A stretch of 64,000 nt of DNA from an uncultured virus (IMG/VR IMGVR_UViG_3300020048_000028) (Duplodnaviria; Heunggongvirae; Uroviricota; Caudoviricetes), in the IMG/VR virus record IMGVR_UViG_3300020048_000028; one strand, 5' to 3'. The notes under the pieces are model-generated. The model searched no databases, had not been told where the DNA came from, and worked only from the letters and a program-made list of their open reading frames with translations. Positions within the stretch are counted from its first letter, which is position 1, and each line of letters opens with the position of its first letter. The translations under genes were made by a program, and so were the position numbers. Below, one piece after another: positions 1-63,818 of this stretch.

Positions 1-127
1 AATGAGTGGATTAACTCTGATTCAATATTGAGTGCCTTGATAGCACCTGTCAAAAAGCTAACATTTAAACAAAAAGTAGCATGAAAACAAATGTTTTAAA
101 CAATACAAATGAAAAACAATATCACAA
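1..127 (+). mobile_element. tnpB: 3' end of a second tnpB element copy (last 27 codons, stop at 82-84, plus right end), truncated by the window edge
   Basis: Near-identical to 32122-32248 (NEWINSDSILSALIAPVK.LTF.QKVA*); identity stops after ATCACAA. Confidence 0.9.
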
Positions 128-203
128 ACAATGGATAAAATCTATATGTGCAGATTTTAATAAAACGACAAGGTTGATTTTAATAAAAAAGACTTGAAAG
201 TCA

Positions 204-420
204 ATGTATTTTATGTAATACAAAATGTATTTTATATAATACAAAATGTATTTTATATAATACAAAATGTATTTTATATAATACACTCAATGTAATTAAT
301 TATAGTTTAATTTTAATCAAGATTGTAAATCAAGTGAAATGTATCGTAAATAATATAAAATGTATTTTATTTAATACAAAATGTATTTTATTTAATACAA
401 AATGTATTTTGTGTAATAAT
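204..420. repeat. Bipartite array of 4+4 copies of a 21-bp quasi-palindromic repeat (ATGTATTTT-N4-AATACAAA)
   Basis: Units start at 204, 225, 246, 267 and 339, 360, 381, 402; core TGTATT-N6-AATACA. Confidence 0.95.
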
Positions 421-425
421 TTATG

Positions 426-433
426 TAACTTTG
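426..433 (+). promoter_or_regulatory. Bacteroidota-type -7 promoter box (TAnnTTTG)
   Basis: TAACTTTG about 50 bp upstream of the operon start at 481. Confidence 0.6.
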
Positions 434-480
434 TTTTGTGGAAATTTTAGTTTAAATAATCAAGTTTTAATAATCAAAAA

Positions 481-831
481 ATGGAAAGGCAACAGGTAGT
501 AGAAAACATAACGCTTATGCTTCAGCAAGCTAAGAGTATAGCAACTGATAGAAAATACGGTTACGGAATAACCTATGTTTATTATGCAGGAGGAACTTTA
601 TGTTTAGATATTAATGATAAGTCGAATAAAAAATTTCTAATAATGGTAAATATATCTACCGAAAAGTATATGATTGAAAAAGAAAATGGAGAATTTATAT
701 CATTTCTACTTCCATTAAAAGCTTTAAGATTAGCGTTTGATATTTATGAAATAAAAAAAGGAAAGACCGAGTATTTTGAAACCTGCTTAAAAAATAGCTG
801 TCTTAGATTTTTAAACGAAAAAAACAAATAA
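481..831 (+). CDS. hypothetical protein
   Basis: 116-aa ORF, first gene after the promoter. Confidence 0.75.
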   Translation: MERQQVVENITLMLQQAKSIATDRKYGYGITYVYYAGGTLCLDINDKSNKKFLIMVNISTEKYMIEKENGEFISFLLPLKALRLAFDIYEIKKGKTEYFETCLKNSCLRFLNEKNK

Positions 832-834
832 ATA

Positions 835-1068
835 ATGGAAACACAAGAAAGTAAAATTGAAACACAAAAGCAGCAATTGGATATACCTGCTGTTATACAA
901 CGTGATATTTATCAAGAACTCAGGGTTGTGGGATTGACACACGAGCAATGTTCTGATGTGATGGATTTAATTGATACACTACCAATTCACATTAAAGATG
1001 GTATAAATAACACAAAAGTAAGTGTGTCAAATGGTATAATTACGGTAGAACCTAATCATGTTGTATAA
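835..1068 (+). CDS. hypothetical protein (cassette 1; ORF reads through the GTT junction)
   Basis: 77-aa ORF; its stop codon is the TAA of the cassette-end TAAC. Confidence 0.7.
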   Translation: METQESKIETQKQQLDIPAVIQRDIYQELRVVGLTHEQCSDVMDLIDTLPIHIKDGINNTKVSVSNGIITVEPNHVV

Positions 1069-1069
1069 C

Positions 1070-1128
1070 GTTTTGCAGCTAATAGACGGGCTTGACACTT
1101 ATATAATTCCGCCTGTTTATTAGGTGCT
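1070..1128. repeat. Cassette spacer hairpin 1 (attC-like)
   Basis: GCAGCTAATAGACGGGC...GCCTGTTTATTAGGTGC; nearly identical to 1489-1547. Confidence 0.9.
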
Positions 1129-1171
1129 GTTAGCAGTTGTGCCAAAGAAAAACAAACTAAAAATAAAATAT

Positions 1172-1471
1172 ATGTATACAGAATATTACGGTAAAGAAAA
1201 AACAATTTTAGGGCTTTTTGATGTTGATGAAAGACTTAATCATAATAGTTGGACTATTAGAGGAACTCATATTACTAATTTTAGTAAAGAAAATGTTTTA
1301 AAGTATAAATATACGATTGATGAATTTAAGAAAATTGACCCTGAAATTGTTTTGGTTATATCGGGTTTTTCGTATAATAATACAGGCAAAGCTATTGATG
1401 GATATTCATTACATAGAATTGGAGAATGTAGAGATTTAAGTGTGTTTTGGAGAATTTATGAAAGAGCGTAA
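1172..1471 (+). CDS. hypothetical protein (cassette 2)
   Basis: ORF track 1124..1471; ATG at 1172 after an A-rich leader is the more plausible start. Confidence 0.7.
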   Translation: MYTEYYGKEKTILGLFDVDERLNHNSWTIRGTHITNFSKENVLKYKYTIDEFKKIDPEIVLVISGFSYNNTGKAIDGYSLHRIGECRDLSVFWRIYERA

Positions 1472-1488
1472 ATGGCATTACTGCTAAC

Positions 1489-1547
1489 GTTTTGCAGCTA
1501 ATAGACGGGCTGAACACTTATATAATTCCGCCTGTTTATTAGGTGCT
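1489..1547. repeat. Cassette spacer hairpin 2 (attC-like)
   Basis: 59-bp copy of 1070-1128 differing only in the loop. Confidence 0.9.
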
Positions 1548-1604
1548 GTTATATTTAGTTGCCTAAAATAGCAATGCGGAGTGAAAAACATAAAATTAAA
1601 AAAT

Positions 1605-2339
1605 ATGATAAATACAAAAAAAGGAAATAGTATTGAATTACTTAAAGGATTAGAAAGTAATAGCATTGATTTAATAATTACTGACCCTCCATACAAAACG
1701 ACTAAAAGAGGAAATAGTGGAGGAACAGGCGGTATGCTAAAAGAAGATAATTTTATTAAGGGAAATGGCGGTTTTGCTAATAATGATATTAAGTTTTCAG
1801 AATGGCTACCATTATGCTATAATGTTTTAAAAGATGGTGGACACTTTTACGTTATGACTAATAATAAGTGTTTAAAGGAAATGTTAAATGAATTAGAAAA
1901 AGCAAAATTTAATGTGTTTAAAACTCTAATATGGGCTAAAGATAATTGCATTACGAATATGTATTATATGGATAGCCACGAGTATATTATTTTTGCTTAT
2001 AAAGGTAAAGCTAATAAAATAAATAACTGCGGAACGAGAAGTGTTTTAAATATACCTAATTGTAAAAACAAACTACACCCAAGCGAAAAACCTATTGATT
2101 TAATGAAGATTTTAATTGAAAATTCAAGTAAAGAAAATGATATTGTTTTAGACCCATTTATGGGAAGTGGTAGTACAGGAGTTGCTTGTTTGAAATCAAA
2201 TAGAAAATTTGTAGGTTTTGAAATAGATGAAAATTATTATCAAATTGCTACTGATAGATTTAGTTCTAAAAAAGTTGTAGCAAAAAAAATAACTCATCAA
2301 AATACAAACACAACTAATAATGAATTAACACTTTTTTAA
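1605..2339 (+). CDS. N4/N6 DNA methyltransferase, beta class (cassette 3)
   Basis: ITDPPY catalytic motif, HPSEKP, then SAM-binding VLDPFMGSGST; no cognate endonuclease nearby. Confidence 0.92.
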   Translation: MINTKKGNSIELLKGLESNSIDLIITDPPYKTTKRGNSGGTGGMLKEDNFIKGNGGFANNDIKFSEWLPLCYNVLKDGGHFYVMTNNKCLKEMLNELEKAKFNVFKTLIWAKDNCITNMYYMDSHEYIIFAYKGKANKINNCGTRSVLNIPNCKNKLHPSEKPIDLMKILIENSSKENDIVLDPFMGSGSTGVACLKSNRKFVGFEIDENYYQIATDRFSSKKVVAKKITHQNTNTTNNELTLF

Positions 2340-2386
2340 ATAACGCTATATGCCCACAGGTGCGGTGGGAGGCAATTGAATATAAC

Positions 2387-2502
2387 GGTTCGCAGCTAAA
2401 CGAGGTGGCGTTTTCCACCACAAAATATTATTAAAAACACAAATTATGAATACAGAAAAAATGCCCTTAGAAAACGAAAACGAGCCATCTTGTTTAGGTG
2501 CT
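2387..2502. repeat. Cassette spacer hairpin 3 (long-loop variant containing an ATG)
   Basis: GCAGCTAAACGAGGTGGC...GCCATCTTGTTTAGGTGC, with compensatory changes relative to spacers 1 and 2. Confidence 0.85.
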
Positions 2503-2838
2503 GTTAGCGGTAGTACGGGTTCGGAAAGAATAATATGTGCTGCAAATTACTACAATGATGGAAAAGTAGAGGTTCATAGTTGTAAAAACATAGAGGTTGG
2601 ATTTGTGATATGCGGTCATAGACATCATAACTGCATAGGAACTTTTGTTAAAATGGTTGGTTTTCCTTATTCCGATGAAGCACATAAATTACAAGATACT
2701 GAAATACAAGGGTTTTTAACTTCTAAAAACAGATTTGTAACAAGAGAAGAAGGATTGATAATTGCATTGAGAGAAAATCAGGTAATGGATATAAAGGAAA
2801 TTCGAGGGAACAGATTATTCTCGGAGGACTTATATTAG
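2446..2838 (+). CDS. phage-type hypothetical protein (cassette 4), Cys/His-rich
   Basis: CGHRHHNC, QGFLTSKNRFVTREE and LFSEDLY motifs; start codon lies inside spacer 3. Confidence 0.8.
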   Translation: MNTEKMPLENENEPSCLGAVSGSTGSERIICAANYYNDGKVEVHSCKNIEVGFVICGHRHHNCIGTFVKMVGFPYSDEAHKLQDTEIQGFLTSKNRFVTREEGLIIALRENQVMDIKEIRGNRLFSEDLY

Positions 2839-2896
2839 TATTACCGCTAACTACTCTATACAACCAACTAACCTTTAAATCACCAATAAAATCAAT

Positions 2897-3178
2897 ATGG
2901 AAAAGCCAAACAATGACTATTTTATAATTTATTCAAACTACTTAATTTTTGAAAACCAAACTTTAGCTTTTAGAAAAAAAGAACTATTTAATATTACTAA
3001 TTTGCCTATTCATATTGATTTTAATATTAACGCTAATTGTTGGATTGTAAATAGGAAGCAGCTAACTAAAAGTAAAGCAAAAGCATTAATTATAAGTGAG
3101 CCTAAAATAGTCGATGTGAGTTCCTTGCAATGGTATTATCAGGAACAGTTAAACCATGTGTTTAATTTAAAGAAATAA
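2897..3178 (+). CDS. hypothetical protein
   Basis: 93-aa ORF. Confidence 0.7.
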   Translation: MEKPNNDYFIIYSNYLIFENQTLAFRKKELFNITNLPIHIDFNINANCWIVNRKQLTKSKAKALIISEPKIVDVSSLQWYYQEQLNHVFNLKK

Positions 3179-3233
3179 ATCTCGTTGTTAATAACTTTTG
3201 CATAATATATATTGCATATTAAGTATTTATCGC

Positions 3234-3241
3234 TAATTTTG
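3234..3241 (+). promoter_or_regulatory. Bacteroidota-type -7 promoter box
   Basis: TAATTTTG in the intergenic gap before 3297. Confidence 0.55.
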
Positions 3242-3296
3242 TATCGGCTATAACAGTTATAAATTAAACTTAAAAACAACAAAAACGGTCAAATCT

Positions 3297-4598
3297 ATGA
3301 AAATTATCAAAATCACAAGTAAAGGTGAGATAGACGAAAGAGCTTTCTCATTATTAGGTGCATCTTCAAAGAGAGATGATAACACTAAAATTGGTATGTT
3401 TGGTTCAGGGTTAAAGTACTCCCTTGCCTATTTACTAAGAAAAGAAATTAAATTTAAAGTTTTTTCGGGCTACCGAGAAGTTAATTTTACTACGGAGAAA
3501 GAAGTATTTAGAGATAAATCTTTCAATCGTATTTATGTAAATGGTAAAGAAACTTCTTTGACTACCGATATGGGTATGGATTGGCAGCATTGGTTTGTAA
3601 TGCGAGAGATTTACTGTAATGCCCTCGATGAATCTGAAGGTTCTATTACTGTTGAGGAAATTGATTCTTTTGAAGATATTAAACCTATTGAAGATTTTAC
3701 ATCATTCTTTATTTCAGTTGATGATGATTTTAATACCATTATTGATAATTGGAATGATTACTTTTCTGAAAACAGAAAGGATTTGATTTTCCATGATGAT
3801 AATTTTAATCAGATTTATGCAGGCGGAGAAAAAGTATTAATTTATAGAAAAGGAATTAGATGCCATTCAAACCCATCAACTAAGGCTTTATTTCACTATG
3901 ATATGTCTTGGATTAATATTAATGAAAGCCGAATTATTGCCGATGATTATGATTTTAGGTACAATCTTGTTAAATTTTTGAAAACAATAAAAGACGAGAA
4001 AGTTATTCATAGAATTTTATATAACGTAAACGACTATTGGGAGAAAAATCTATATTGGGAGTGTTCTTTTAGTTTTGATGATGCTTGGAAAAATCTTATT
4101 GGAGATAAATATCTTATACCTTATGAAACAGCAGGTTTGTGGGATGATGAGATGAAGTTATTAAAAGGAGAGTATATTATTTTACCTCAATCTATGGTTA
4201 AATCACTTAAAATTACATTTGGAGCAGATATTAAAGTTATTGGAGAAAATGGAGTTGATTCAAAAGGGGATAAAAAGATAATTGAAGTCCTTGACAAAAA
4301 ACAAAACTTTATGATTAAAGAAGCAACCACTTTTCTTAAAGAGGCAGGTTTTGATATTAAATACCCAATAAAAATTGTTAAATTTCACAGCCCAAATATT
4401 CTTGGACAAGCTGAACATGATGTTATTTATTTGTCTGAAAAGCTTTTTAATATGGGTAAAAGAAAACTCGCTGCCGTAATTATAGAGGAAAACGAACATA
4501 ATTCAACGGGGTGGGGAGATGAAACAAGAGAATTTCAATCTCACTTTATTGACTTATATCTTGGTTCGTTAGAAGATAAAGTGGGAATTTATTTATAG
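3297..4598 (+). CDS. GHKL-type ATPase-like protein with permuted motif order
   Basis: IGMFGSGLKYSL (G2 box) followed by REIYCNALDE (N box). Confidence 0.55.
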   Translation: MKIIKITSKGEIDERAFSLLGASSKRDDNTKIGMFGSGLKYSLAYLLRKEIKFKVFSGYREVNFTTEKEVFRDKSFNRIYVNGKETSLTTDMGMDWQHWFVMREIYCNALDESEGSITVEEIDSFEDIKPIEDFTSFFISVDDDFNTIIDNWNDYFSENRKDLIFHDDNFNQIYAGGEKVLIYRKGIRCHSNPSTKALFHYDMSWININESRIIADDYDFRYNLVKFLKTIKDEKVIHRILYNVNDYWEKNLYWECSFSFDDAWKNLIGDKYLIPYETAGLWDDEMKLLKGEYIILPQSMVKSLKITFGADIKVIGENGVDSKGDKKIIEVLDKKQNFMIKEATTFLKEAGFDIKYPIKIVKFHSPNILGQAEHDVIYLSEKLFNMGKRKLAAVIIEENEHNSTGWGDETREFQSHFIDLYLGSLEDKVGIYL

Positions 4599-4601
4599 TC
4601 T

Positions 4602-4808
4602 ATGACAGTTATTCACGAATTGCAACAAATATTATGGGTTTCAACGCCTCATGGGGATGGTCAAGTATTATTCCTAATGGATTATGGGGTTCACGAAAAC
4701 ACAATATTTGTTGTAGCTCTTGAAGAAAGTGGAATAATTAAACACTACAATAGCAATGATGTAAAACTTTGTAAAAATAACACAATAAAAATAAATAATA
4801 AACAATAA
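4602..4808 (+). CDS. hypothetical protein
   Basis: 68-aa ORF within the operon. Confidence 0.7.
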   Translation: MTVIHELQQILWVSTPHGDGQVLFLMDYGVHENTIFVVALEESGIIKHYNSNDVKLCKNNTIKINNKQ

Positions 4809-7506: not shown

Positions 7507-8472
7507 ATGGATAAAATAAAAGTAATAGTTCCTCCTGTTATTAATATTGGTGGAAATAGCGTAACTCTAAATGAGGAACAAAATAAAATGCTCTCTGAAA
7601 AAATAAAGCTTTTTGGTACTGAAGGTATAGAAACGAAAGCTTGTATTATGCAGATTGTTGACGAGAATAGAAATTCTGAATCAATACCTGAAAACAGTAT
7701 CGTTTCAGCTATTAAGGCTCTTAATTTACCAAAACCTATTATATTCTTTGATACCGAAACTACGGGATTAGATGTAGGAAACGACAGAATAGTTGCTATT
7801 GCAGTTACTAAAGTCATGCCTGATGGAGAAATGATTTCAAAAGATTATTTAATAAATCCTATTATTCCTATTAGTAAAGAGGCAAGCGATATTCATGGAA
7901 TTACAAATGATATGGTTGTTGATAAACCTAAATTTAATCAACTTGCAAAATCTATGTATTCTTTTATTAAAGATTGTTACTTGGGAGGTTACAATAACAA
8001 TTATTTTGATAATCAATTACTGCAAGAAGAATTTTTAAGATGTGGAATAGAATATCCTCCTTATGATATAGTAAGCATAGATGCTTGTTCTATTTTTAAA
8101 ACTTATGAAAAAAGAGATTTAACATCTGCTCTTAAATTTTATTGTGATAAGGAAATGGAAAATGCACATGATGCTATGGCTGATAACAATGCTACATTAG
8201 AAATTTTCTTAGGTCAAATCAAAAAATATGACGATTTGAAAAGTATGACTATTGAGGAAATAGCTAAAATTGGCAAACCTGAAAATCAAGTTGATTTCGC
8301 AGGCAGAATTTTAAAAGATGCCGAAGGAGATTATATTTGGAATTTCGGAAAGCCTAAAGGAAAAAAAATAAGACTTGAAATGGGTTTTGGAGATTGGGTT
8401 TTAACAAATCAGTTTCCCCAAAGTTTTAAAAACTTGGTTTCTAAAATATTAGTTGAAATAAGAAAAAAATAA
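7507..8472 (+). CDS. DEDDh 3'-5' exonuclease (DnaQ-like)
   Basis: FFDTETTG, IHGIT, YFD, AHDAMAD. Confidence 0.9.
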   Translation: MDKIKVIVPPVINIGGNSVTLNEEQNKMLSEKIKLFGTEGIETKACIMQIVDENRNSESIPENSIVSAIKALNLPKPIIFFDTETTGLDVGNDRIVAIAVTKVMPDGEMISKDYLINPIIPISKEASDIHGITNDMVVDKPKFNQLAKSMYSFIKDCYLGGYNNNYFDNQLLQEEFLRCGIEYPPYDIVSIDACSIFKTYEKRDLTSALKFYCDKEMENAHDAMADNNATLEIFLGQIKKYDDLKSMTIEEIAKIGKPENQVDFAGRILKDAEGDYIWNFGKPKGKKIRLEMGFGDWVLTNQFPQSFKNLVSKILVEIRKK

Positions 8473-14301: not shown

Positions 14302-15585
14302 ATGAGTAATTCTGATATAAAAAATAAAGGTGGTATGTTTCGTGGTAATTTACACTCTGAGGGAGGTATACCATTGGTCGTTAAAGGTAGTGGACAAAGC
14401 ATAGAAGTCGAAAAAGACGAGCCATTAATACCCTCAGAAGCTATGCAGGATAAGTCTGTAAAAAAGATAACAGGAACTAACGTAGAGATATTAAATAAGC
14501 TAAATAAAGACGTTGGTGCAAAAGGAATGAATGATAAAGCCACAGAAGTTTCTGTTGGTGATGCTATTGTTTGTAGAAAATCAGCTTATGATAAAACTAA
14601 AAGAACATATATAGGAACTCCTAAGCAAATTGTATCTGCCATCAATGAAAGTGGTGGATGTAAAGAAATTGAAAGTGGAGGTAAATCTATTGAACCTGAC
14701 GGTACTATTAGGCAATATGATAATGGCGGAGCAGTAAATGCTCGTTGGGATAAGAAGAAAAAAAACATTGAAGAACTTGCGAATAACATACAAAGATTAA
14801 GATTTAATCTAACAAAGGATTTGAAATCTGATAATGAAAAAGATTTTCTTAATGCTTTAGTTATTTCAATTATGATGAAAACAGGTGAGCGTATTGGTAA
14901 TAATACTTCAGCTTCAAACAATCATGTGGGAGTAACGGGCTTTAAAAAGAAACATATCAAAATTGATGGAACAACTGTTTATTTAAAATATACAGGTAAA
15001 TCAGGCGTTGAGCATGAAAAATCTTTTACCGATAAAATACTATCAGCTCATTTAAAGAGGGCTATTAAAAATTCTCCTAATAGTTATGTATTTTGCACTT
15101 CAGATGGTTTTAGAATTAAAGGCGACAAAGTAAATCGCTACTTAGAAGATTATGGCGTTTCAAACAAGGCTATCAGAGGCTTTTCCGCTAATAAATGGAT
15201 AGTTGATAAATTAGAAAAAATAGAAATTCCTGATACCGAAAAGAAAAGAAGAACTGTTTTTAATAAGGTTGCTAAACAAGTTGCTCAAAAAATAGGGCAT
15301 GGTACTGCTACTTTAAAAAAGCACTATATGATGCCTGAGCTTTCTGATAATTATATTTTTGATAAAGAAATTATTGATGTTAAAGAAGCGACTGTTTTTG
15401 CAACAGGTGGCGAATTAGTAGGCGAATCTTTAGAAAAAAGAGTTAAGAATAGATTAACCGATAATAGAATTTCATTAAAAGATTTAGCTGAAATAGTTGG
15501 TAGAGAGCCGAACTATCCAAATGAATATGTTGGAGATTTGAAACTTCAAAAATGTTTTCTTTTACCTTATTATAAATTATTATAA
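14302..15585 (+). CDS. modular protein with a type IB topoisomerase catalytic domain
   Basis: TGERIGN, YTGKSG, KAIRG and IGHGTATLKKHYM give the R-K-R-H-Y pentad; flanked by YDNGG and FATGG. Confidence 0.85.
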   Translation: MSNSDIKNKGGMFRGNLHSEGGIPLVVKGSGQSIEVEKDEPLIPSEAMQDKSVKKITGTNVEILNKLNKDVGAKGMNDKATEVSVGDAIVCRKSAYDKTKRTYIGTPKQIVSAINESGGCKEIESGGKSIEPDGTIRQYDNGGAVNARWDKKKKNIEELANNIQRLRFNLTKDLKSDNEKDFLNALVISIMMKTGERIGNNTSASNNHVGVTGFKKKHIKIDGTTVYLKYTGKSGVEHEKSFTDKILSAHLKRAIKNSPNSYVFCTSDGFRIKGDKVNRYLEDYGVSNKAIRGFSANKWIVDKLEKIEIPDTEKKRRTVFNKVAKQVAQKIGHGTATLKKHYMMPELSDNYIFDKEIIDVKEATVFATGGELVGESLEKRVKNRLTDNRISLKDLAEIVGREPNYPNEYVGDLKLQKCFLLPYYKLL

Positions 15586-16732: not shown

Positions 16733-19700
16733 ATGAAATTATTAGCACCCAACGGAAAGCCGAGCAATCTAACTCCCGAACAATATCGTTTGGTTCGCAC
16801 TCCTGCGTTCAAAGCGTGGTTTGGGGATTGGGAAAACTCACCTGAAACAGCAAGTAAGGTTGTTGATTCTAATGGAGAGCCTAAAGTAATGTATCATGGA
16901 AGTATATCAAAGTTTACTATTTACGATACAAAAAGAACTGATTCTGATTGGAGAAGTCCATTTGTATTTATAACAGATAGAAAGGAAATCGCAGAAATTT
17001 TCGCTAAACAACACAAAACAGAAAGAAAACAATCAGTAAAAGTATATGAACTTTTTGTTAATATGAAAAATCCATTTGATATTTTCAATAAAGTAGAACA
17101 TTATAATATCGCAACAAAAATAAATAAAAAATTATTTAATAAGAGCGAAGATACTTGGGCTTTTTTAGAAACGACAGAAATTACAAGAGCCATAAAAAAA
17201 GGAAATTTTGACGGAATACACACTACTGAAACAGTTACTATTGGAAAAAATAAAAATGGTGATTATGTCCATGAATTGATAGAAAACATTGGTGTATTCA
17301 AATCAAACCAAATAAAACTCGCAGACGGCACAAACACTACTTTTGATTCTAACAATCCTGATATTCGTTATAACAATGGTGGTTTAACAATGAAAGCACC
17401 AAAACTATTAGCACCCAATGGACAGCCAAGTAACCTAACTCCCGAACAATACCGACTTGTTCGCACTCCTGCTTTTAAAGCGTGGTTTGGAGATTGGGAA
17501 AATTCTCCCGAAACTGCAAGTAAGGTTATTGATGAAGAAACTAAAGAGCCTTTGGTGGTTTATCATGGTTATATGGTAGGTGGTGGTGCAGGAAACAAGT
17601 TTTATGAATTTAAAAATCTACCTGCCTTTTTTTCTAAAAATAGAGATTTTGCAGAACAATACGCTTCAACTAAAAGCATGGATGCAGGGCTTGATGCCGA
17701 TATTTATTCTTATGCTTGTTTCTTAAATATTAGAAAACTATTTGACTCAAAAGATAAATCTATAATTGATTTAGCTAATGATAAATTGCCCGAAAAAATA
17801 AGAGTATCTCACGGAACTATGTGGTTTTTAAGTGCTGATATGCCAAAAGAAGAAGTGTTAGAGCTAATGAATGGAATTATAACTATTCCAACTGATGATA
17901 TGGCAGAAGATATTTTAGCGTCTAATATTGGCGATGTTATTGCCGAAAAAGTTTCGGCTTCACAATACGAAGATAAAATTTTATTATACAAGGATAACGA
18001 TTGGGCTTATATAACTGATAAGAAATATTTTAATGAAGTTGTTGAATATGAAGTTGCTGAATATATTTATAATTCTTACTCAAGACCATACGAAAAAAAA
18101 ATAACATATCGAGGTAAGAATTTAGCTATGTTCATTTTAAATGAAGAAACATACTCATACGAATTTAATAAAGACACTTTGTTTTTAGAATATCTTGATG
18201 AAGTTGAAAAAATAAAAAAATACTACATTGACAATATTTTATATTTATTGGATAATGCTAAAAAAAGATTAACAATAGAAGTAACAAATAAAGCAGGTAA
18301 TAAAAAAAATTTTTATGTTAGAAAAATAAACTTAAAAACATATAAAACAACTACAAATAATAATTGGACAATGTTTGAAAATGATACTGTGCAAAAATTT
18401 TTAATTGACAATAATTTTGGGGGTTGGATTGCTTTGGAAAAAGGAGATAAGACTTACGCAGTTTATGATAATAAAAACATTAAACTTGCAGATGGTACAA
18501 ACACTACCTTTGATTCTAACAATCCTGATATAAGATACGAAATCGGTGGAATTTTTCAAGGAACTCCACATGAATTTGATAAATACTCTACTGATTATAT
18601 GGGAACAGGCGAAGGGCAGCAAGTTTTTGGTTGGGGATTGTATTTTACTGATATTAAAGATATTGCCAAGCAGTATGCTAAAAATGAATTATTGATTGAA
18701 AAAGAAATAGCTAAAAAATCAAATGATTCTGCTCATCTATGGATTTACTCAAATGTACCAAGCCAAGTTAAAGATAAATTAGCTTATTTAAAAAACGAGT
18801 TAAATGATTTGGAAGAAAAACAAAGTCAATATACTAAGTTAGATTTAGCTGATAAAATTAAAACTTATAGAGATTTAATTGATATAATTGAAAATTATAA
18901 AGGAAAGGTATATTCCGTAACTTTATTTAAAGGAGAGAATGAAAGTGATTATGATTTATTGCTATGGGATAGTCCTGTAAATGTTGAGCAATTAGAAAAG
19001 ATATTTATAGAAGCTGAAAAAATAGGAGGTATTCCTTTAAAAGAAGGGTGGTATTTTAGTGAAACTAAATATGGAATTACTCCTAAATTATTGGAAGCAG
19101 GATATAGTAATGTTAATTTATTTGATGAAAGAAGTTCAGTAGTAAGAGGAGATAGATTATATAGTCATTTAGCAAAAGAATTAGGTTCTGATAAAGAAGC
19201 AAGTTTGTTTCTTCTTCGTGCAGGTATTGATGGAATTAAATATAAGTCGGGAACTTTATCGGGCATGGAAGATAAAGAAGGATATAATTATGTTATTTTT
19301 GATGATGATGATGTTACTATTGAAAATAAGGAACTATATAAGAATGGAGGTTTAACAATGAAAAAAACTAAAGCTGAATTATTAGCACCTAACGGAAAGC
19401 CGAGCAACTTAGCTCCCGAACAATATCATTTGGTTCGCACCCCTGCATTTAAGGCATGGTTTGGCGATTGGGAAAATTTACCTGAAACGGCAAGTAAAAT
19501 ACTTGACGATAACGGAGAGCCTTTAGTTTGCTATCATGGAAGTAATAATGATTTCAATGAATTTAGGAGTGATGTTGGTTATTCGCATGATAAGGGTTTT
19601 TATGGTCGTGGGTTTTATTTTACATTTAATACTGATACTAAATGGATGAGCTATGCAAAAGGCGAGGCAGGTTATTATGGTTCAAAAATTAAAGATTTTT

Positions 19701-21040
19701 TTATTCAGTCTTATAATCCATTTGATATTAGTGAATTATCAGTATATAAAGGAGTTAGGATTAATTATGTTGGAGCTGAATCAATAGTTTTTTTGAGTAA
19801 TATTGCAAAAATGTTTCCTCAGCTTTCTGATAAAATAAAAGTTGAGCAAAAAAAATGGAATAGAAATACTCAAGAATATGATTTTATTGATTTACCAATA
19901 AGTGTTTTACCTAATCTTATAGAAGAATATAGTAAAAAAGTGAAAACTTTCATTACTGATGATAATTGGGGAAATAGAAATAAAGTAAGCGGTTATGTGA
20001 AAGCTGAAATAGTAGAATACGACTATACAAGTACGGGAGGAACTAAAGGTTCTTATGAAAGTATTGACACTTTAGACACTTATGATGATAAACTAAAAAA
20101 AGAAGAAATTGAAATTCTTTTGATTTGTGCTGCAATAGAAAAATATGACGGCATAGAAGCTCGTTATAATCCTGAAGGATATATGACAAGACTTCCTGAA
20201 ATTACAGATGCTATAAAAGAAAATCACGATAGTATTTTGCAAACTAAGTATGGAGATGAATTAGTTGCGTTTAAACCAACACAAATAAAGCTTGCTGACG
20301 GAACAAACACTACTTTTGATTCTAACAATCCTGATATAAGATACGCTCAAGGAGGTGGATTAGATAATGATGTTAAAGTGAAAATAATTGAAGATGATAG
20401 TTTAGCTGAAAAAGTTTACGATATTGTTCAAGATGATTTATCTGTCGCAGTACCAAGATTAGCACTTATTGAAAATGGTAAAGTTATCGGAGGAATATAT
20501 TTAGAACCTGCTCATGTTTTAGATGGCAAGAGAGAGCCTTTATGGGAATATAAGTTTGATATTTATATTAAGAGAAGTAAAAGAAAAAAAGGTTATTCAA
20601 AAATTCTTTTAGATGCTATGATTAAGGATTTTGTGGATAATTTCCATGATGCCGACCAAATAAGAGGAGAGGTTATTAACAATAGACTTGAAAAATCACT
20701 TATTAAAAATTATGGTTTTCATTGCGATAGTGGAAATCAAGAAGAAATTACTTATTGTTATTTATCAAGAGAAGATGCTATTGATTATTTAAAAAGAGGT
20801 AAATTTTCAAATGGAGGAAATACCAAAACATTACTTGAAATAATAAATACTGACGGAGAGCCGAATATTATAAATGATATTATTGATATAGGTGGATTTG
20901 ATGAGGTTTTATCAATAGAACAAGTAGAAAATAAATTAGGCAGAGAGATACATTGGTGGAACGATGATATTGTTTACCTTAGTGGCATAAAATATAAAAA
21001 AGTTTATTTACGTCCTGAATATAAAAAAGTTGTTGAATAA
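16733..21040 (+). CDS. polyvalent protein: 3 ART-like modules, one GxGxxxxGWGLYF ART-like module, GNAT-like module, C-terminal tag
   Basis: Repeated LAPNGKPSNL...WFGDWE...YHG...QIKLADGTNTTFDSNNPDIRY; KRKKGYSKILL acetyl-CoA-type motif. Confidence 0.8.
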   Translation: MKLLAPNGKPSNLTPEQYRLVRTPAFKAWFGDWENSPETASKVVDSNGEPKVMYHGSISKFTIYDTKRTDSDWRSPFVFITDRKEIAEIFAKQHKTERKQSVKVYELFVNMKNPFDIFNKVEHYNIATKINKKLFNKSEDTWAFLETTEITRAIKKGNFDGIHTTETVTIGKNKNGDYVHELIENIGVFKSNQIKLADGTNTTFDSNNPDIRYNNGGLTMKAPKLLAPNGQPSNLTPEQYRLVRTPAFKAWFGDWENSPETASKVIDEETKEPLVVYHGYMVGGGAGNKFYEFKNLPAFFSKNRDFAEQYASTKSMDAGLDADIYSYACFLNIRKLFDSKDKSIIDLANDKLPEKIRVSHGTMWFLSADMPKEEVLELMNGIITIPTDDMAEDILASNIGDVIAEKVSASQYEDKILLYKDNDWAYITDKKYFNEVVEYEVAEYIYNSYSRPYEKKITYRGKNLAMFILNEETYSYEFNKDTLFLEYLDEVEKIKKYYIDNILYLLDNAKKRLTIEVTNKAGNKKNFYVRKINLKTYKTTTNNNWTMFENDTVQKFLIDNNFGGWIALEKGDKTYAVYDNKNIKLADGTNTTFDSNNPDIRYEIGGIFQGTPHEFDKYSTDYMGTGEGQQVFGWGLYFTDIKDIAKQYAKNELLIEKEIAKKSNDSAHLWIYSNVPSQVKDKLAYLKNELNDLEEKQSQYTKLDLADKIKTYRDLIDIIENYKGKVYSVTLFKGENESDYDLLLWDSPVNVEQLEKIFIEAEKIGGIPLKEGWYFSETKYGITPKLLEAGYSNVNLFDERSSVVRGDRLYSHLAKELGSDKEASLFLLRAGIDGIKYKSGTLSGMEDKEGYNYVIFDDDDVTIENKELYKNGGLTMKKTKAELLAPNGKPSNLAPEQYHLVRTPAFKAWFGDWENLPETASKILDDNGEPLVCYHGSNNDFNEFRSDVGYSHDKGFYGRGFYFTFNTDTKWMSYAKGEAGYYGSKIKDFFIQSYNPFDISELSVYKGVRINYVGAESIVFLSNIAKMFPQLSDKIKVEQKKWNRNTQEYDFIDLPISVLPNLIEEYSKKVKTFITDDNWGNRNKVSGYVKAEIVEYDYTSTGGTKGSYESIDTLDTYDDKLKKEEIEILLICAAIEKYDGIEARYNPEGYMTRLPEITDAIKENHDSILQTKYGDELVAFKPTQIKLADGTNTTFDSNNPDIRYAQGGGLDNDVKVKIIEDDSLAEKVYDIVQDDLSVAVPRLALIENGKVIGGIYLEPAHVLDGKREPLWEYKFDIYIKRSKRKKGYSKILLDAMIKDFVDNFHDADQIRGEVINNRLEKSLIKNYGFHCDSGNQEEITYCYLSREDAIDYLKRGKFSNGGNTKTLLEIINTDGEPNIINDIIDIGGFDEVLSIEQVENKLGREIHWWNDDIVYLSGIKYKKVYLRPEYKKVVE

Positions 21041-23964
21041 TGAATTTAGCACCCAACGGAAAGCCGAGCAATCTTAATCCCGAACAATACCGACTTGTTC
21101 GCACTCCTGCATTTAAAGAATGGTTTGGAGATTGGGAAAGTGCCTATGAAACAGGAAATTATGATAATGTTTCAAAAGTTATTGATAAAAACGCAGAGCC
21201 TAAAGTATTGTTTCATGGTTCACCTGATATTGATAAAATTAATGTTTTCAAATCAAGTAAAGGTTTTGATTATAGTTTTTTTGCAAATGATTTTCATGAA
21301 GCATTAAGATATACTCCTAATGGTAATGATAGAAATAAAGTAAAATCATTTTTTGTAAATTCATTAAAAAAATTCGATTGTGAAAATCTAAATGAAAAAG
21401 AAATAAATGATATAAAAAAATTACTAAATATTGACTCTGTTAAAGAAGTTTTTTTTAAACATATTAAAGATATAGGTTTTAGTAAAGATTCATATAAGGA
21501 AGAATTGGGATATGAGCGATTAAATGATGATGATTTTTTATTTAAAATATTTATACAGGGTGGTGATAATTGGGTTATAATTGAACATCCTATAATTCAG
21601 AATTATATAAAATCAAACGGTTATGATTCTTTTACAACTTTAGAAGGTGATAATGGTAATATTGCTGTTTATAATCCTAATCAAATAAAGCTTTCCGATG
21701 GTACTAATACTACATTTGATTCTAACAATCCTGACATAAGATATAATAATGGTGGAGATATTGAAGAACCTACTGAGTTTTGGGGAGAATCGGCAGCAGG
21801 AGTATTATTAATTTGTAATAAAACAAATAGAGTTTTATTGTTTCATAGAAGTGAAGATGTTTACGAGCCTGAAACTTGGGGAATTATAAGTGGTAAAATA
21901 GATGAAGATGAAAATCCTAAAGAGGCTATTTTAAGAGAGCTTATTGAGGAAACGAAATTTAGTGAAAAAGAAGTAAAAAGTATTGTTTTAAAGCCGTCTT
22001 ATGTTTATAAAAAAGGAAGCTTTACTTTTTATAATTACTTAGGTTTTGTTGATAGTGAATTTACTCCAACTCTTAATTGGGAAAATACCGATTATAAATG
22101 GTGCGACATAGGAGATTATCCTCAGCCATTACATTTTGGCGTTTCGTTATTATTAAAAAATATTGATTTAAAAAAAGAGTTATACAAAAAAACAATAAAA
22201 AAGAAATTATTAGCACCCAACGGAAAGCCGAGCAATCTAAATGAAGTTCAACATTATTTGGTTCGCACCCCTGAATTTAAAAAATGGTTTGGTGATTGGG
22301 AATTATTGTATCAATACAAAGACAGATACACATACGAAGGACATGATAGATTATTTGGGCAACCAAAAATAGGAAATGAATACGATTTAGTTGATGGTAC
22401 AAAAGCAAAATTGTTAAGTTTAGATAAAGAAAAAGGACAATATGAAGTTTTAATTTATGGAAAAAAACAATTCATTTCTTTCAGAAGAATGCTTTATTTG
22501 TATTCAGGAATACCTGATGTTTTTACTGAAGAACGACTATTAGAAATAAGTAAAGTCGTTGATTCTAACGGAGAGCCTTTAGTGGTATATCATGCAACTG
22601 ATAATAAATTTTGGGAATTTAAAAAAGAAAAACAAATTGTTGGCTATTATGGAAAAGGCTTTTATTTTTCAAGTAGTTTGGAAAAATCAAAAGATTATGG
22701 CAAAAGAGTAATACCTGCATTTTTAAATATAAAATCTGTTTTCACTTTATCTGATGAAACTCCACAAGAATTATTAAATGAATTAGCAGAAACAGATTTT
22801 GAAGTTCCATCATCTCCATCGCAATTAGGTTGGCGTGAAGAAAACGACATAGAACAAAGGTCAAAATATACTTTTGGGTATGCTTCTGAAAATTCAGATG
22901 TGTTTATGAGGAATCTTATTAAGAATGGTTTCTATGGTATAAAAATGACTTATGACTTTAAAAATGAAATAAATTTTTTTATTGCATTTGAACCCAATCA
23001 AATTAAATTAGCAGATGGCACTAATACTACCTTTGATTCTAATAATAATGATATAAGATACAAAAAAGGAGGAGAATTAGAACTATATCATGGAGGTCAA
23101 AAGGTTTTTAAGAAATTTAAAACCAATTTAGTTGATAGAATTGATTACGGTTGGGGTTTATATTTTTCTGATTCCGAAGAAGTTGCAAAATATTATGCAA
23201 GACGACCTTTTGATAGACCATTAATATTTAAAACTATATGGGATTCTGATTTAAGTTTAGATGAAAAAGGTGATGTATTATATTGCGTTAGGCAAAATCT
23301 ACTTGATATTCAAAAATCAAAAAAAGAATTAAATGAAAAGTTTTATCCATTATTAGATAAAATAGAACAAATTGTAAAAAACAAAGGAGTTGTTTATAAG
23401 GTAGATGTAGAAAAAGGAAGGTGGCTTGATTGGGATAAAAAAGTTCCTGAATACATACGTTTAATGTTTGCTGATATTAAGTCCGAATTTTTTGAAAGTG
23501 GAGAAGATTTATATAACTATTTAAGTAGAAAAGAACAATCCGAAAAAAAAGCTTCTATTATTTTACTTAATAAAGGTATTGAAGGCATAAAATATAAAAT
23601 ATCTAATAATATAACTAATACCAATATAAAAGGTTATAATTATGTAATCTTTGACGATGATTATATTAAAGTAAAAGAAGTTTTTAGATATAATAACGGA
23701 GGAGAATTTAAAGAAGTAGTATGCAGCTCATGTGGTTGGGGTTGGAATAAGCACGAAAGTGAAGAAGATGAAATATATGTGTGCCATAAATGCGGAACTG
23801 ATAATAACCCTGCTCATAAAGTTTCCGATTTACTTTCTTCACAAGAAGTTGAGTATAAGTTAGGCAGAAAGCTTGATTGGTGGAACGATGATATTGTTTA
23901 CCTTAGTGGCATAAAATACAAAAAAGTTTACTTACGACCTGAATATAAAAAAGTTATTGAATAA
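21040..23964 (+). CDS. polyvalent protein: ART-like, Nudix, ART-like, ART-like, Zn ribbon, C-terminal tag
   Basis: Nudix box GKIDEDENPKEAILRELIEET; CSSC...CHKC; same ART flanks as 16733. Confidence 0.8.
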   Translation: MNLAPNGKPSNLNPEQYRLVRTPAFKEWFGDWESAYETGNYDNVSKVIDKNAEPKVLFHGSPDIDKINVFKSSKGFDYSFFANDFHEALRYTPNGNDRNKVKSFFVNSLKKFDCENLNEKEINDIKKLLNIDSVKEVFFKHIKDIGFSKDSYKEELGYERLNDDDFLFKIFIQGGDNWVIIEHPIIQNYIKSNGYDSFTTLEGDNGNIAVYNPNQIKLSDGTNTTFDSNNPDIRYNNGGDIEEPTEFWGESAAGVLLICNKTNRVLLFHRSEDVYEPETWGIISGKIDEDENPKEAILRELIEETKFSEKEVKSIVLKPSYVYKKGSFTFYNYLGFVDSEFTPTLNWENTDYKWCDIGDYPQPLHFGVSLLLKNIDLKKELYKKTIKKKLLAPNGKPSNLNEVQHYLVRTPEFKKWFGDWELLYQYKDRYTYEGHDRLFGQPKIGNEYDLVDGTKAKLLSLDKEKGQYEVLIYGKKQFISFRRMLYLYSGIPDVFTEERLLEISKVVDSNGEPLVVYHATDNKFWEFKKEKQIVGYYGKGFYFSSSLEKSKDYGKRVIPAFLNIKSVFTLSDETPQELLNELAETDFEVPSSPSQLGWREENDIEQRSKYTFGYASENSDVFMRNLIKNGFYGIKMTYDFKNEINFFIAFEPNQIKLADGTNTTFDSNNNDIRYKKGGELELYHGGQKVFKKFKTNLVDRIDYGWGLYFSDSEEVAKYYARRPFDRPLIFKTIWDSDLSLDEKGDVLYCVRQNLLDIQKSKKELNEKFYPLLDKIEQIVKNKGVVYKVDVEKGRWLDWDKKVPEYIRLMFADIKSEFFESGEDLYNYLSRKEQSEKKASIILLNKGIEGIKYKISNNITNTNIKGYNYVIFDDDYIKVKEVFRYNNGGEFKEVVCSSCGWGWNKHESEEDEIYVCHKCGTDNNPAHKVSDLLSSQEVEYKLGRKLDWWNDDIVYLSGIKYKKVYLRPEYKKVIE

Positions 23965-23976
23965 ATTAAGATTATT

Positions 23977-24591
23977 ATGTATAAACCTGTATTATTACCC
24001 TACTCATATTCGGACTTAGAGCCGTCTATTGATGCTGAAACAATGAATGTTCATTATAATAAGCACTATTTAGGCTATCTAAATAATTTGAATGATGAAT
24101 TTAAAAAGTATGATTTACCTATTTTACCTATTCAAACATTAATTAAGAATATTGATGATTTTTCGCAAAATGTTCGTAATAATGCAGGTGGGTATTATAA
24201 TCACTCTTTGTTTTGGAAAATGCTAACTCCTATAAACAATAAATCTAACAATTTACCAATAGGTATTTCCAAAAATATAATTGATAGAGATTTCGGTAGC
24301 TTTGCAATGTTTAAAAAATTAATTGAAAATACTGCGAAAAAAAGATTTGGTTCGGGGTGGGTATGGTGGATAGTTATGCCTAATGGACATACAAAAATTG
24401 TTGAAACTCCTTATCAAGATAATCCACAAATGTATTATAATTGTCATATATTATTAGGTATTGATGTTTGGGAACACGCTTATTACTTAAAATATAAAGC
24501 AGATAGAATGAAATATGTAAACAATATTTTTGATATAATTAATTGGGATTATTGTAATAAAATTCTTTCACTTTTTTTATATAAAAAATAA
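23977..24591 (+). CDS. sod: Fe/Mn superoxide dismutase
   Basis: HYNKH, NHSLFW, FGSGW, DVWEHAYY. Confidence 0.95.
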   Translation: MYKPVLLPYSYSDLEPSIDAETMNVHYNKHYLGYLNNLNDEFKKYDLPILPIQTLIKNIDDFSQNVRNNAGGYYNHSLFWKMLTPINNKSNNLPIGISKNIIDRDFGSFAMFKKLIENTAKKRFGSGWVWWIVMPNGHTKIVETPYQDNPQMYYNCHILLGIDVWEHAYYLKYKADRMKYVNNIFDIINWDYCNKILSLFLYKK

Positions 24592-62710: not shown

Positions 62711-63334
62711 ATGAACTTAAAAGAGTTTGAGCCGATATTTAAAAATGACATAGCTCCTATTTATGTTAAACACAAAAAAGAATTTGACGAGTTCGGAATA
62801 CATGGCTGTTTACATATATCAAGGTCTTTAATTATAAGTAGATTGCTTTTTAAACAATTAACTAATTTAGGTTTTTTACTCGATATAGATAAAATAACTT
62901 ATGCAGTTGCTTTTCACGATAGTGGTAGAAAGGCTAATGGAATTGATTATTGGGAGGCAAATAGTTTTTATATATGCTCAAACTATCTTGATAATAAAAA
63001 CATACCTGATTCAAATTATATATCTTCTTTAATTATAAAAGATAATAATAAGAATGACTACAACTACTTTTGTGTTTATGATACCGATGTTTTAGAAATA
63101 GCCCGACCATGCACAGGTGTAGGCGTTTATAATTTCAATCCTACATTCCTAAAACTAAAAGATATATTTTCAAATCATTATACTACTATTCAAAATGAGG
63201 TTTTTAGCTTTATATTAGATACTGAAAATATAAAAGATAATTTTTCAAATGAAAACTCTTTAATTAACTTAATAGAATATTTAGAAAACAAAAAAGAATT
63301 ATATCCTTTGCTATATGATGCAAGTATTTCCTAA
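62711..63334 (+). CDS. HD-domain phosphohydrolase
   Basis: HGCLHISR, AFHDSGR, YDTDVLE. Confidence 0.8.
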   Translation: MNLKEFEPIFKNDIAPIYVKHKKEFDEFGIHGCLHISRSLIISRLLFKQLTNLGFLLDIDKITYAVAFHDSGRKANGIDYWEANSFYICSNYLDNKNIPDSNYISSLIIKDNNKNDYNYFCVYDTDVLEIARPCTGVGVYNFNPTFLKLKDIFSNHYTTIQNEVFSFILDTENIKDNFSNENSLINLIEYLENKKELYPLLYDASIS

Positions 63335-63818
63335 AATAATAAATGATAATTTTTACAAATGGTTTGATAGCTCTAAGGCTATTGATGGTAATGGAAAGTA
63401 TCAAATATATTATCATAAAAGTAGGTCTAAAGAATTATTTGAAGTTTTTAAAAGTAATGAAGTAGATAAAAATGTATATAACGATTCTTGTTATGGTTTT
63501 TACTTTGTAGCTGATTATCACAAATCTCATGTCGAATATATGGGAGATGGCGTTGAATATTATGTTTTTCTGAATTATAAAAAGCCGTTCTACGTTTACG
63601 ATAATGGATTGGGCGAGATAAAAGATATGGAGGGTAATTTATATCCCTATTTGGATATAAATAAAACCTTTTGCGAAAATTTAGAGTTAAAGGGTTATGA
63701 TGCTATTATTATAGAGTGCCATAGATATTACACTCAATATGTAGTTTTTCATAGTCATCAAATTAAGAGCATAGATAACAATGGAGATTATTCCGAAAAT
63801 TTAAACATATTCAAGTAA
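63315..63818 (+). CDS. stand-alone ART-like domain (same family as the polyvalent modules)
   Basis: FYKWF...G...YYH...GFYF...FLN...P...GYDAI...VVF...QIKS. Confidence 0.7.
   Translation: MMQVFPKIINDNFYKWFDSSKAIDGNGKYQIYYHKSRSKELFEVFKSNEVDKNVYNDSCYGFYFVADYHKSHVEYMGDGVEYYVFLNYKKPFYVYDNGLGEIKDMEGNLYPYLDINKTFCENLELKGYDAIIIECHRYYTQYVVFHSHQIKSIDNNGDYSENLNIFK

Follow-up and report, generated by a model that had tools for sequence, protein, structure and literature searches.

The DNA analysed here (the window) is a stretch of 64,000 nucleotides from an uncultured virus of the Caudoviricetes (Duplodnaviria; Heunggongvirae; Uroviricota), IMG/VR record IMGVR_UViG_3300020048_000028. It is phage-like, with almost all of its long open reading frames (ORFs) on one strand, and its genes include those for a single-stranded DNA-binding protein, an exonuclease and a topoisomerase IB (TopoIB)-like protein. 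Close to its left end four ORFs are separated by hairpins and accompanied by inverted repeats. A prior examination of the letters alone (the sequence-only reading) had taken this region for an integron-like array of gene cassettes, and the array, together with the recombination system to which it probably belongs, is the subject of this analysis.

The repeats were sought by reading positions 1-4200 and by scans of the whole window. Four inverted-repeat pairs lie on the + strand (892-906/1055-1069, 1129-1144/1473-1488, 1548-1564/2370-2386 and 2503-2516/2838-2851), such that each segment opens with GTTA and twelve further nucleotides and closes with their complement followed by TAAC (892/1069, 1129/1488, 1548/2386, 2503/2851). 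In a whole-window scan for paired GTTA...TAAC 16-mers, which scored G·T as a pair and used 20 shuffles as a control, these four were the sole + strand pairs combining 15-16 paired positions out of 16 with a G·T at position 11. Pairs matching at 14 of 16 positions were at chance level over the same sequence (14 on the + strand and 13 on the - strand, versus 8-29 in the shuffles). The junctions between the ORFs (1066-1132, 1485-1551 and 2383-2506, + strand) have a common plan, namely TAAC, a 5-nt linker beginning with G, GCAGCTAA, a variable stem and loop, TTAGGTGC, T and GTTA. The left flank motif TAACGKTYNGCAGCTAA is present in three copies where 0.14 are expected in the window, and the right flank motif TTAGGTGCTGTTA in three exact copies, or ten matches against 1.58 expected if up to two mismatches are allowed; beyond the three junctions the 64 kb contain no further exact copy of either. 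The features of the locus are as follows, all on the + strand.

796-891, + strand: worn leading hairpin of cassette unit 1, with its 3' half, GCAATTGGATATACCTGCT, at 873-891; ORF 835-1068 starts in what was once the loop.
892-1069, + strand: body of cassette 1, with arms at 892-906 and 1055-1069; it contains the 3' part of ORF 835-1068 (77 aa).
1070-1128, + strand: hairpin 1, resembling an integron attC site; the 5' part of unit 2 (1070-1488), the full site with its R cores being 1066-1132.
1129-1488, + strand: body of cassette 2, with arms at 1129-1144 and 1473-1488 and ORF 1172-1471 (99 aa).
1489-1547, + strand: attC-like hairpin 2, 97% identical to hairpin 1; the 5' part of unit 3 (1489-2386).
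1548-2386, + strand: body of cassette 3, with arms at 1548-1564 and 2370-2386, encoding an orphan N6/N4 DNA methyltransferase.
2387-2502, + strand: attC-like hairpin 3, of a long-loop type with start codon 2446 in the loop; the 5' part of unit 4 (2387-2851).
2503-2851, + strand: body of cassette 4, with arms at 2503-2516 and 2838-2851 and ORF 2446-2838 (130 aa).
2852-2896, + strand: putative remnant of the insertion site (the attI analogue) and of a recombinase-gene leader, from a reading of aligned relatives.
2897-3178, + strand: 93-aa ORF, not a recombinase, in the place of the relatives' recombinase gene.

The three spacers are top-strand hairpins with a single G/G mismatch after a 3-bp helix. 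Copy 3 has a stem interior unlike that of copies 1 and 2, with the pairing and the G·T positions unchanged. Folded as DNA, the top strands have energies of -10.7, -12.8 and -14.5 kcal/mol (z = -3.5, -4.3 and -2.0), compared with -4.8, -6.9 and -8.1 kcal/mol for the bottom strands (z = -0.3, -1.4 and +0.7). Thus the four private end-pairs of the sequence-only reading are present where it placed them, its covarying spacers with a fixed G/G mismatch hold for all three copies, and the bias of G-T mismatches towards folding of the top strand is real. Its statement that each gene is bracketed by its own repeat applies to ORFs 2 and 3; ORFs 835-1068 and 2446-2838 start 5' of the left arm, within the loop of the preceding hairpin.

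The methyltransferase ORF runs from 1605 to 2339, or from a GTG at 1581 (PF01555, 1.4e-42; phrog_67), and ORF 2446-2838 matches phrog_839, whose function is not known. ORFs 835-1068 (77 aa) and 1172-1471 (99 aa) have no family match in Pfam or PHROG. By reading, the worn hairpin at 796-891 is homologous to a long-loop hairpin that precedes the body at 1020-1422 of a related viral locus, L004 (related loci carry L numbers throughout). Of seven distinct long-loop hairpins, five have a loop ATG from which a frame reads through the 3' half (..PSCLGAV, in which GGT GCT GTT encodes G A V), and such frames run in frame into four different cassette bodies (window 2392-2506; L003 2175-2291; L004 1898-2014; L017; L052). 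Here the recombination site seems to supply a start codon and a short leader peptide to the cassette ORF.

An exact-pattern scan of IMG/VR placed the window's array in a family of 81 loci on many contigs. Hairpin interiors vary among these loci with pairing retained, and the flanks TAAC-GKTTT and T-GTTA are constant. Stems of the GTTA...TAAC type number 179 on the strand of the element and 29 on the other, and in an unfiltered count a G·T occupies base pair 11 in 174 of the 179 versus none of the 29. In 185 distinct bodies (median length 353 nt) the stem is 15 bp long, with positions 5-15 paired in 86-99% of cases by all four Watson-Crick types and pairing ending at position 16; at positions 1-4 and 11 the search filter itself dictates the values. 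The longest open frame is on the element strand in 169 of these bodies. Among 70 distinct spacers, TAAC is followed by G in 69. Linkers measure 5-6 nt on the 5' side (65 spacers) and 1-2 nt on the 3' side (62 spacers), and in 45 a helix of 3-4 bp precedes a single mismatch. At the first break of the outer helix, over all 70, the opposed bases are G/G in 27 and C/A in 21. When unit ends were joined as they would be in an excised circle, the top-strand junction hairpin was the more stable one for 64 of 65 units (means of -25.2 kcal/mol for the top and -19.1 kcal/mol for the bottom strand). The corresponding top-strand mean in the array context is -16.5 kcal/mol, the greater stability of the circle form following from the choice of arms. 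Among matches in genomes, the true elements are confined to contigs of Bacteroidota metagenome-assembled genomes (MAGs). Pattern matches in Alkalibacillus, Clostridium and archaeal MAGs have neither a TAAC-G flank nor cassettes, and we read them as chance.

The search for a tyrosine recombinase that the sequence-only reading had proposed led to an Xer-like enzyme encoded directly behind arrays in relatives. PF00589 was found in six of 20 array-bearing records, in four of these directly behind the array and on the same strand. Taking one such protein (L004 4995-5825, 277 aa) as the query, we collected 34 homologue loci; behind arrays of relatives the Xer-like recombinase is 277-301 aa long. At a strict threshold, 22 of the 34 have cassettes upstream on the same strand. 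All 73 cassettes at the 34 loci are so placed, against 0 downstream and 0 on the other strand. Among the 12 loci that have no cassettes, at least six have less than 900 nt upstream. In 13 loci the last TAAC stands 53, 54 or 68 nt before the ATG of the recombinase gene and is followed by TAYTATATGTA. Different cassettes abut this conserved site, TAAC|TAYTATATGTA (the bar marking the border), 53-68 nt before the ATG. The longest such array is in G004, the 169-kb IMG/VR record of L013 (loci L147 and L148), where cassettes occupy 81.2-115.66 kb on one strand and end at the recombinase gene. It comprises about 33 non-nested cassettes (counted from 40 rows) over about 34 kb, one fifth of the record.

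The best PDB matches of the recombinase are the XerC-like 4a8e, XerA (5hxy) and XerD (1a0p), with a full-length alignment of the catalytic domain, and the best NCBIfam model is XerA_Arch (198 bits versus a cut-off of 220). The integron-integrase models fall below their cut-offs (TIGR02249, 164.5 versus 265, in two stretches; NF011946, 86 versus 435). The alignment to IntI4 (2a3v) pairs residues 17-172 with 16-175 and 202-274 with 248-319, so that 29 residues face 72 of IntI4, and the phage protein has nothing opposite about 43 residues of IntI4 176-247. We take the IntI-specific insert to lie within IntI4 176-247. As judged by these alignments, the recombinase is without the IntI-specific insert and is not an IntI.

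Direct comparison of related loci defines what moves. The recombinase regions of L096 and L097 are 99.9% identical over 975 nt, and the two loci have four cassettes in common, at 98-100% identity and in a different order. At every border the identity starts at (C)TAAC and stops at TAAC(G). Behind one cassette stands a hairpin in L096 but the insertion site in L097, and the sequence common to these two contexts is TAAC alone. The borders of shared units thus fall inside TAAC|G, which is C|GTTA on the other strand and compatible with G|TTA. More broadly, three different arrays (G..M-H-F-E-N, D-E-F-G..H and A-B-C) stand next to recombinases that are 97-100% identical. Because the L096/L097 identity borders fall at TAAC|G, the mobile unit, as read from these alignments, is a G-linker, a hairpin, a GTTA arm, an ORF and a second arm ending in TAAC, such that the hairpin moves with the downstream gene. 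The borders of the units in the window were placed by transfer from L096/L097 and are to that extent presumptive. The sequence-only reading had taken the body between GTTA and TAAC as the cassette; its end-pairs are real, and the unit that moves is the hairpin plus the downstream body, with TAAC|G on both sides. It had also named the absence of gain, loss or reordering at the AAC/GTT borders as the outcome that would speak against it, and such reordering is what we found, with 98-100% identical cassettes rearranged beside recombinases of about 100% identity.

The window's own locus varies too. We compared window 400-3600 with assembled contigs of four sequencing runs, X2-X5 (X3, X4 and X5 being lake metagenomes from three other studies), in which alternative adjacencies are visible and rare intermediates are not. 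A 15.8-kb contig from X4 covers 400-847 and 2848-3600 with 4 differences each, and carries 1,098 nt in place of the window's 2,000. Contigs from X3 and X5 also break at 847, and a contig from X3 resumes at 2848, the first base of the last TAAC. Cassette borders are the points at which contigs from X2 and X3 acquire other neighbours (1476/1483 and 2381/2383, the latter at TAAC), and a contig from X2 has a variant interior of hairpin 2 before the same methyltransferase gene. An X5 contig joins window position 1141 to 1476. The comparison of cassette content in relatives, as the sequence-only reading had advised, therefore shows the window's array replaced between near-identical flanks in other metagenomes.

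Taken together, these results suggest that window 848-2851 consists of four mobile gene cassettes, and that these belong to an integron-like system which Bacteroidota phages carry, a reading to which we assign a probability of roughly 0.85. The comparisons show how the system is built, that its stems covary, that one strand folds better, where units begin and end, that they are reordered and replaced, and that they are linked to a recombinase. We infer that the Xer-like recombinase catalyses the exchange, on a folded single-stranded DNA substrate and via circular intermediates, and the exchange would probably be strand-specific. In the model that we favour, the mobile unit on the gene-sense strand is G and four linker bases, an imperfect hairpin, one or two bases, the GTTA arm, the ORF and the complementary arm ending in TAAC, and units are swapped at TAAC|G. 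Excision of a unit as a circle would bring its private arms together around its own hairpin, and the whole would fold into a single long hairpin. Starting at the base, this would consist of a 15-bp stem with the invariant G·T at base pair 11, an asymmetric 5-nt/1-nt loop, a 3-bp helix, a mismatch (G/G or C/A), a covarying stem and a variable loop. The circle hairpin would be the analogue of attC, and the private arms its R boxes. The analogue of attI would be TAAC|TAYTATATGTA, 53-68 nt upstream of the recombinase gene, where cassettes join. The cassette genes, which point towards the recombinase, would then be read from upstream promoters of the phage.

Several observations weigh against this interpretation, and most of them bear on the alternative that the cassettes are exchanged by homologous recombination only. 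According to that alternative the flanks TAACGTTTTGCAGCTAA and TTAGGTGCTGTTA serve as short portable homology, as proposed for the promoter-stem-loop (PeSL) cassettes of T4-type phages, and the adjacent recombinase is an ordinary phage integrase. A tyrosine recombinase is lacking in 14 of the 20 array-bearing records, including six of the eight that are at least 90% complete; arrays thus persist without an enzyme encoded in cis, and their content varies at the window's own recombinase-less locus. The left break of the variable region, which begins at 848, falls at 847 within a hairpin loop and not at a TAAC|G border. Hairpin interiors also reassort independently of both flanking bodies, and one body can stand behind different hairpin types (for example GTTATAAGCTGTAAAA in L004, L017 and L025), so exchange must also take place at the GTTA end or through homologous recombination within the conserved TTAGGTGCTGTTA. 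A further point concerns method: the stem finder counts G·T as a pair and demands GTTA and TAAC, which limits what the 185 bodies can say of the outermost positions and of position 11. However, the junctions of cassette and insertion site have TAAC alone in common, which is too short for homologous recombination, and even where the hairpin types are unrelated the borders recur within the same 4-5 nt. Nor does homology account for private 15-bp arms with an invariant G·T and a fixed fourth-position mismatch, or for the one-sided distribution of cassettes at recombinase homologues (73/0/0), which end at a fixed distance from the ATG. We therefore regard homologous recombination as the only mechanism as improbable.

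The arms raise a related question. Near-identical arm pairs (GTTAGCAGTAGTGCC.../...GGCATTACTGCTAAC) close bodies of very different length and content (L004 3545-3753, L051 3050-3912, L059 3435-3529 and window 1129-1488). Together with the X5 contig that joins 1141 to 1476, they show arms behaving as types common to unrelated cassettes, which a simple cassette model leaves unexplained. L073 has a body with the same 16-nt end arms as cassette 3, with a different hairpin in front and in the last position of its array; its longest ATG ORF matches the Dam family (PF05869) and not PF01555.

A further point against the cassette reading is that the strand which folds is the one found in the mRNA as well, and part of the conservation could serve RNA. 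If mRNA structure were primary, transcripts would be closed by a stem between their 5' and 3' ends, hairpins would punctuate a polycistronic early transcript (in processing, stability or translation start), and DNA exchange would be a side effect. Consistent with this, the well-folding strand is the sense strand, with the longest frame on it in most bodies (169/185); the non-Watson-Crick pairs are G·T, equivalent to G·U in RNA; and an ORF starts in the loop, and continues in frame through the 3' half, in most of the distinct long-loop hairpins (5/7). Yet RNA structure is unable to reorder or replace identical DNA cassettes at TAAC|G, and it leaves the fixed link to a recombinase and an upstream site unexplained. 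In addition, the stems have no fixed relation to start codons, and Rfam at gathering thresholds gave no match in the whole window (nor did ARAGORN find any tRNA or tmRNA gene there). A role of the folded strand in RNA is possible, yet it cannot explain the DNA rearrangements, and we think it very improbable that mRNA structure is the primary function. Other functions of the hairpins were dropped by reading: intrinsic terminators, as no T run follows; loop promoters of the sigma-70 or Bacteroidota type, as the spacing is wrong; N4-type hairpin promoters; and a main role in RNase III punctuation. We likewise dropped the idea that the hairpin inserts by itself, in the manner of a miniature inverted-repeat transposable element, since it leaves arms that pair across the gene unexplained.

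If the cassette reading is correct, the window's array is one that lacks a recombinase gene beside it. By reading, 2852-2896 is similar to the stretch of 53-68 nt that separates the last TAAC from the ATG of the recombinase gene in L093-L116 (TAAC|TAYTATATGTA...AAAATCAAT). The ORF that follows, 2897-3178, has no Pfam, NCBIfam or PHROG match. A homologue of 72% identity sits 52 nt past the array end of L032 (stored at 2336-2602, - strand), whose record is 97% complete and in which PF00589 is absent. Atlas features link this ORF, at 0.95 and as a lead only, to the ferredoxin-like N-domains of THUMP/RlmL-type methyltransferases. The right flank, including ORF 2897-3178, is conserved in X3 and X4, and those relatives are therefore without the recombinase too. 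The sequence-only reading had seen no integrase, and this was borne out: tblastn with the relatives' recombinase found no homologue in the whole window (best E = 3), and blastn of window 2781-4700 against the recombinase loci gave no match. We rejected the TopoIB-like protein at 14302-15585 (PF01028, 4e-20; weak PF00589) as the enzyme of the array, PF01028 being present in none of the 20 array-bearing records. With no tyrosine recombinase related to the array enzyme and with three + strand sites (1066-1132, 1485-1551 and 2383-2506), the locus corresponds to a cluster of attC sites lacking an integron integrase (CALIN), provided that the sites are counted as attC analogues. Because it keeps a remnant of the insertion site and the window holds no recombinase, the array is an orphan, CALIN-like one. 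Therefore it can change only via a recombinase acting in trans or by homologous exchange.

Such orphan arrays have been noticed before in phages and explained differently. CALINs are reported in virulent phages, including Polaribacter phage P12002L, in the accessible portions of Qi et al. (2023, Front Microbiol, PMC9892861). Like that of the window, the P12002L CALIN is an array without an integrase that includes an N6_N4 methyltransferase. One of its sites, P12002L_attC1, is a hairpin of the window's family (TAAC, a 5-nt linker, the hairpin and GTTA), and we found it in L126 at about 7520-7580, between two methyltransferase genes. The same portions of that paper treat the sites as parts of bacterial integrons, assayed with IntI1, and mention no phage recombinase, private arms or unit borders. 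Phages would, on this account, have acquired pieces of ordinary bacterial integrons, with true attC sites served by a host IntI. The AAC...GTT cores, the hairpin sites and the single ORFs between them agree with it, as do the Bacteroidota MAG contigs that carry true elements and the fact that HattCI called P12002L_attC1 an attC (PMC9892861). In the reported assays, though, verified IntI1 recombinants were obtained for five of six sites and not for this one (PMC9892861), a result that does not support the cassette reading either and is silent on a phage enzyme. The account is further contradicted by a recombinase without the IntI insert that scores well below the integrase models (164.5 versus 265 for TIGR02249; 86 versus 435 for NF011946), by cassette genes oriented opposite to the integron rule, and by phage records in which arrays reach about 34 kb and adjoin a recombinase carried by the phage. 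We find it hardly credible.

The likeness to integrons is nevertheless extensive, as far as the accessible accounts of them go. In classical integrons, especially sedentary chromosomal ones, and in the phage system alike, a tyrosine recombinase of the Xer/IntI branch stands next to an insertion site, with an array of mostly single-gene cassettes that all face one way. Both have imperfect hairpins with AAC...GTT cores and a variable tip, cassettes whose first bases are complementary to their own far core, so that a circle would restore the full site, and a crossover in a conserved core. Turned round so as to start from the recombinase gene, the phage locus reads as an integron does, with that gene pointing away and the insertion site followed by cassettes that have hairpins at their far ends, and its better-folding strand, which runs towards the recombinase gene, corresponds to the integron 'bottom' strand. 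Folding of the bottom strand and a crossover at G|TTRRRY are the rules given for integrons in the portions of Qi et al. (2023) available to us (PMC9892861). The phage site combines AAC...GTT cores with a conserved inner box of 8 bp that contains one mismatch, and with a variable stem that covaries; its cassettes move as units with the crossover in a conserved core, as shown by the 98-100% identical units with TAAC|G borders. The linker of the phage site is asymmetric, and no bulged bases were seen.

There are also differences. The attC sites of integrons carry bulged bases, whereas the phage site has a 5-nt/1-nt asymmetric linker and a base-base mismatch. Unlike those of integrons, the R stems are 15 bp long, private to each cassette and marked by an invariant G·T. 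Cassette genes point towards the recombinase, and the integron-style arrangement with a cassette promoter (Pc) is absent. The system is phage-borne and its cargo is mainly DNA methyltransferases, unlike that of classical integrons. The recombinase differs from IntI by the lack of the IntI-specific insert, the additional domain (intI_Cterm profile) by which IntegronFinder recognises integron integrases (Cury et al. 2016). Because this insert defines IntI and was looked for without success, we class the system as an integron analogue and not as a member of the family. The integron-like behaviour proposed by the sequence-only reading stands, and membership of the integron family does not.

Other mobile systems resemble the array in part. 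The PeSL cassettes of T4-type phages are, like the window's system, small accessory phage genes flanked by repeated stem-loops and shuffled among related phages, as described in the accessible portions of Arbiol et al. (2010, PMC2839356) and Comeau et al. (2014, PMC4122927). In contrast to PeSLs, the window's system has private covarying arms, 4-nt junctions and a linked recombinase. Where a PeSL-type exchange has extended shared sequence and no site-specific junction, junctions here share as little as TAAC, and by reading there is no sigma-70 or Bacteroidota promoter spacing in the hairpins. PeSLs are said to act via homologous recombination of their promoter-terminator motif. The pdif modules of Acinetobacter plasmids are, like the phage cassettes, gene modules bounded by short sites for Xer-type recombinases in varying contexts; however, they have double-stranded 28-bp XerC/XerD sites in alternating orientation, use host Xer, and lack hairpins and a one-way array. 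IS200/IS605 elements, which have subterminal hairpins inside both ends and a Y1 HUH transposase (TnpA), fit no better: each unit here has one hairpin, at one end, and the sole IS605-type gene of the window encodes a TnpB (31012-32205), 28 kb away. In a literature with thin coverage of subscription journals we found no description of a phage-encoded Xer-like cassette system, and only Qi et al. (2023) touches the family.

The cargo of relatives consists mostly of genes for DNA modification and anti-defence. Of 151 cassette ORFs with 60 aa or more, 150 were profiled (Pfam, E <= 1e-5). A match was obtained for 44 and none for the other 106. DNA-modification enzymes make up 34 of the 150, consisting of 21 N6_N4_Mtase, 4 Dam, 3 C5 methylases, 3 Mom, 1 MT-A70, 1 D12 and 1 TET-associated glycosyltransferase; these ORFs are not independent, as 13 of the 21 N6_N4 matches come from one record. 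One of the 150 is Tad2-like. In the G004 array at least 13 cassette ORFs are N6_N4 DNA methyltransferases.

The remainder of the window offers other points of note. Two blocks of direct repeats lie at 190-425, in AT-rich sequence 5' of the first ORF; by reading, each has about three copies of a unit of some 22-23 nt (AATACAAAATGTATTTTATATAAT-like), and they could be iterons, operators or early promoters. Four ART-PolyVal ADP-ribosyltransferase 'polyvalent proteins' (1435, 974, 1516 and 167 aa) are encoded at 16733-29141 and 63315-63818, some with added NUDIX, DUF3990, hemerythrin or GNAT domains, and a gene for an Fe/Mn superoxide dismutase (23977-24591) stands between the polyvalent-protein genes. 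The TnpB-like gene at 31012-32205 combines OrfB_IS605 with a Cas12f1-like TNB domain, and no TnpA was found among the window proteins scanned. Positions 40874-48058 encode a 2,394-aa protein with SNF2-type helicase motifs, the C-terminal part of which resembles phage methylase/helicase proteins at 27-32% identity. Relatives found via a 433-aa neighbour (35-41% identity, 10 loci) were no help for synteny, as cassettes occur in two of the ten and elsewhere in the locus.

For the window, these results amount to an annotation with four cassettes, three sites and the remnant of one insertion site, a recombinase being absent. For the family as a whole, we lean towards a phage-owned counterpart of the integron. 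This would have a plain Xer-like recombinase, gene-sense-strand hairpins and a 15-bp private R stem with an obligatory G·T; its arrays, of up to about 34 kb, would act as libraries of DNA-modification and anti-defence genes, and its orphan arrays would be served in trans during co-infection. The usual view of integrons is one of bacterial devices that IntI defines. In the present case a whole family of phages appears to apply the cassette logic of integrons with a simpler Xer-like enzyme, differently shaped sites and a counter-defence cargo. Bacterial integrons have recently been reported, reportedly in preprints of 2024, to stock anti-phage defence cassettes; if that is true, the phage system would be their phage-side mirror. 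If the enzymology holds, recombination of single-stranded hairpins would be possible without the IntI insert, and present integron finders would miss a large class of cassette arrays. The compact pair of recombinase and site, with its built-in check of strand and partner, could then be of use in engineering and, for the phages themselves, the system would provide a mechanism for fast turnover of accessory genes.

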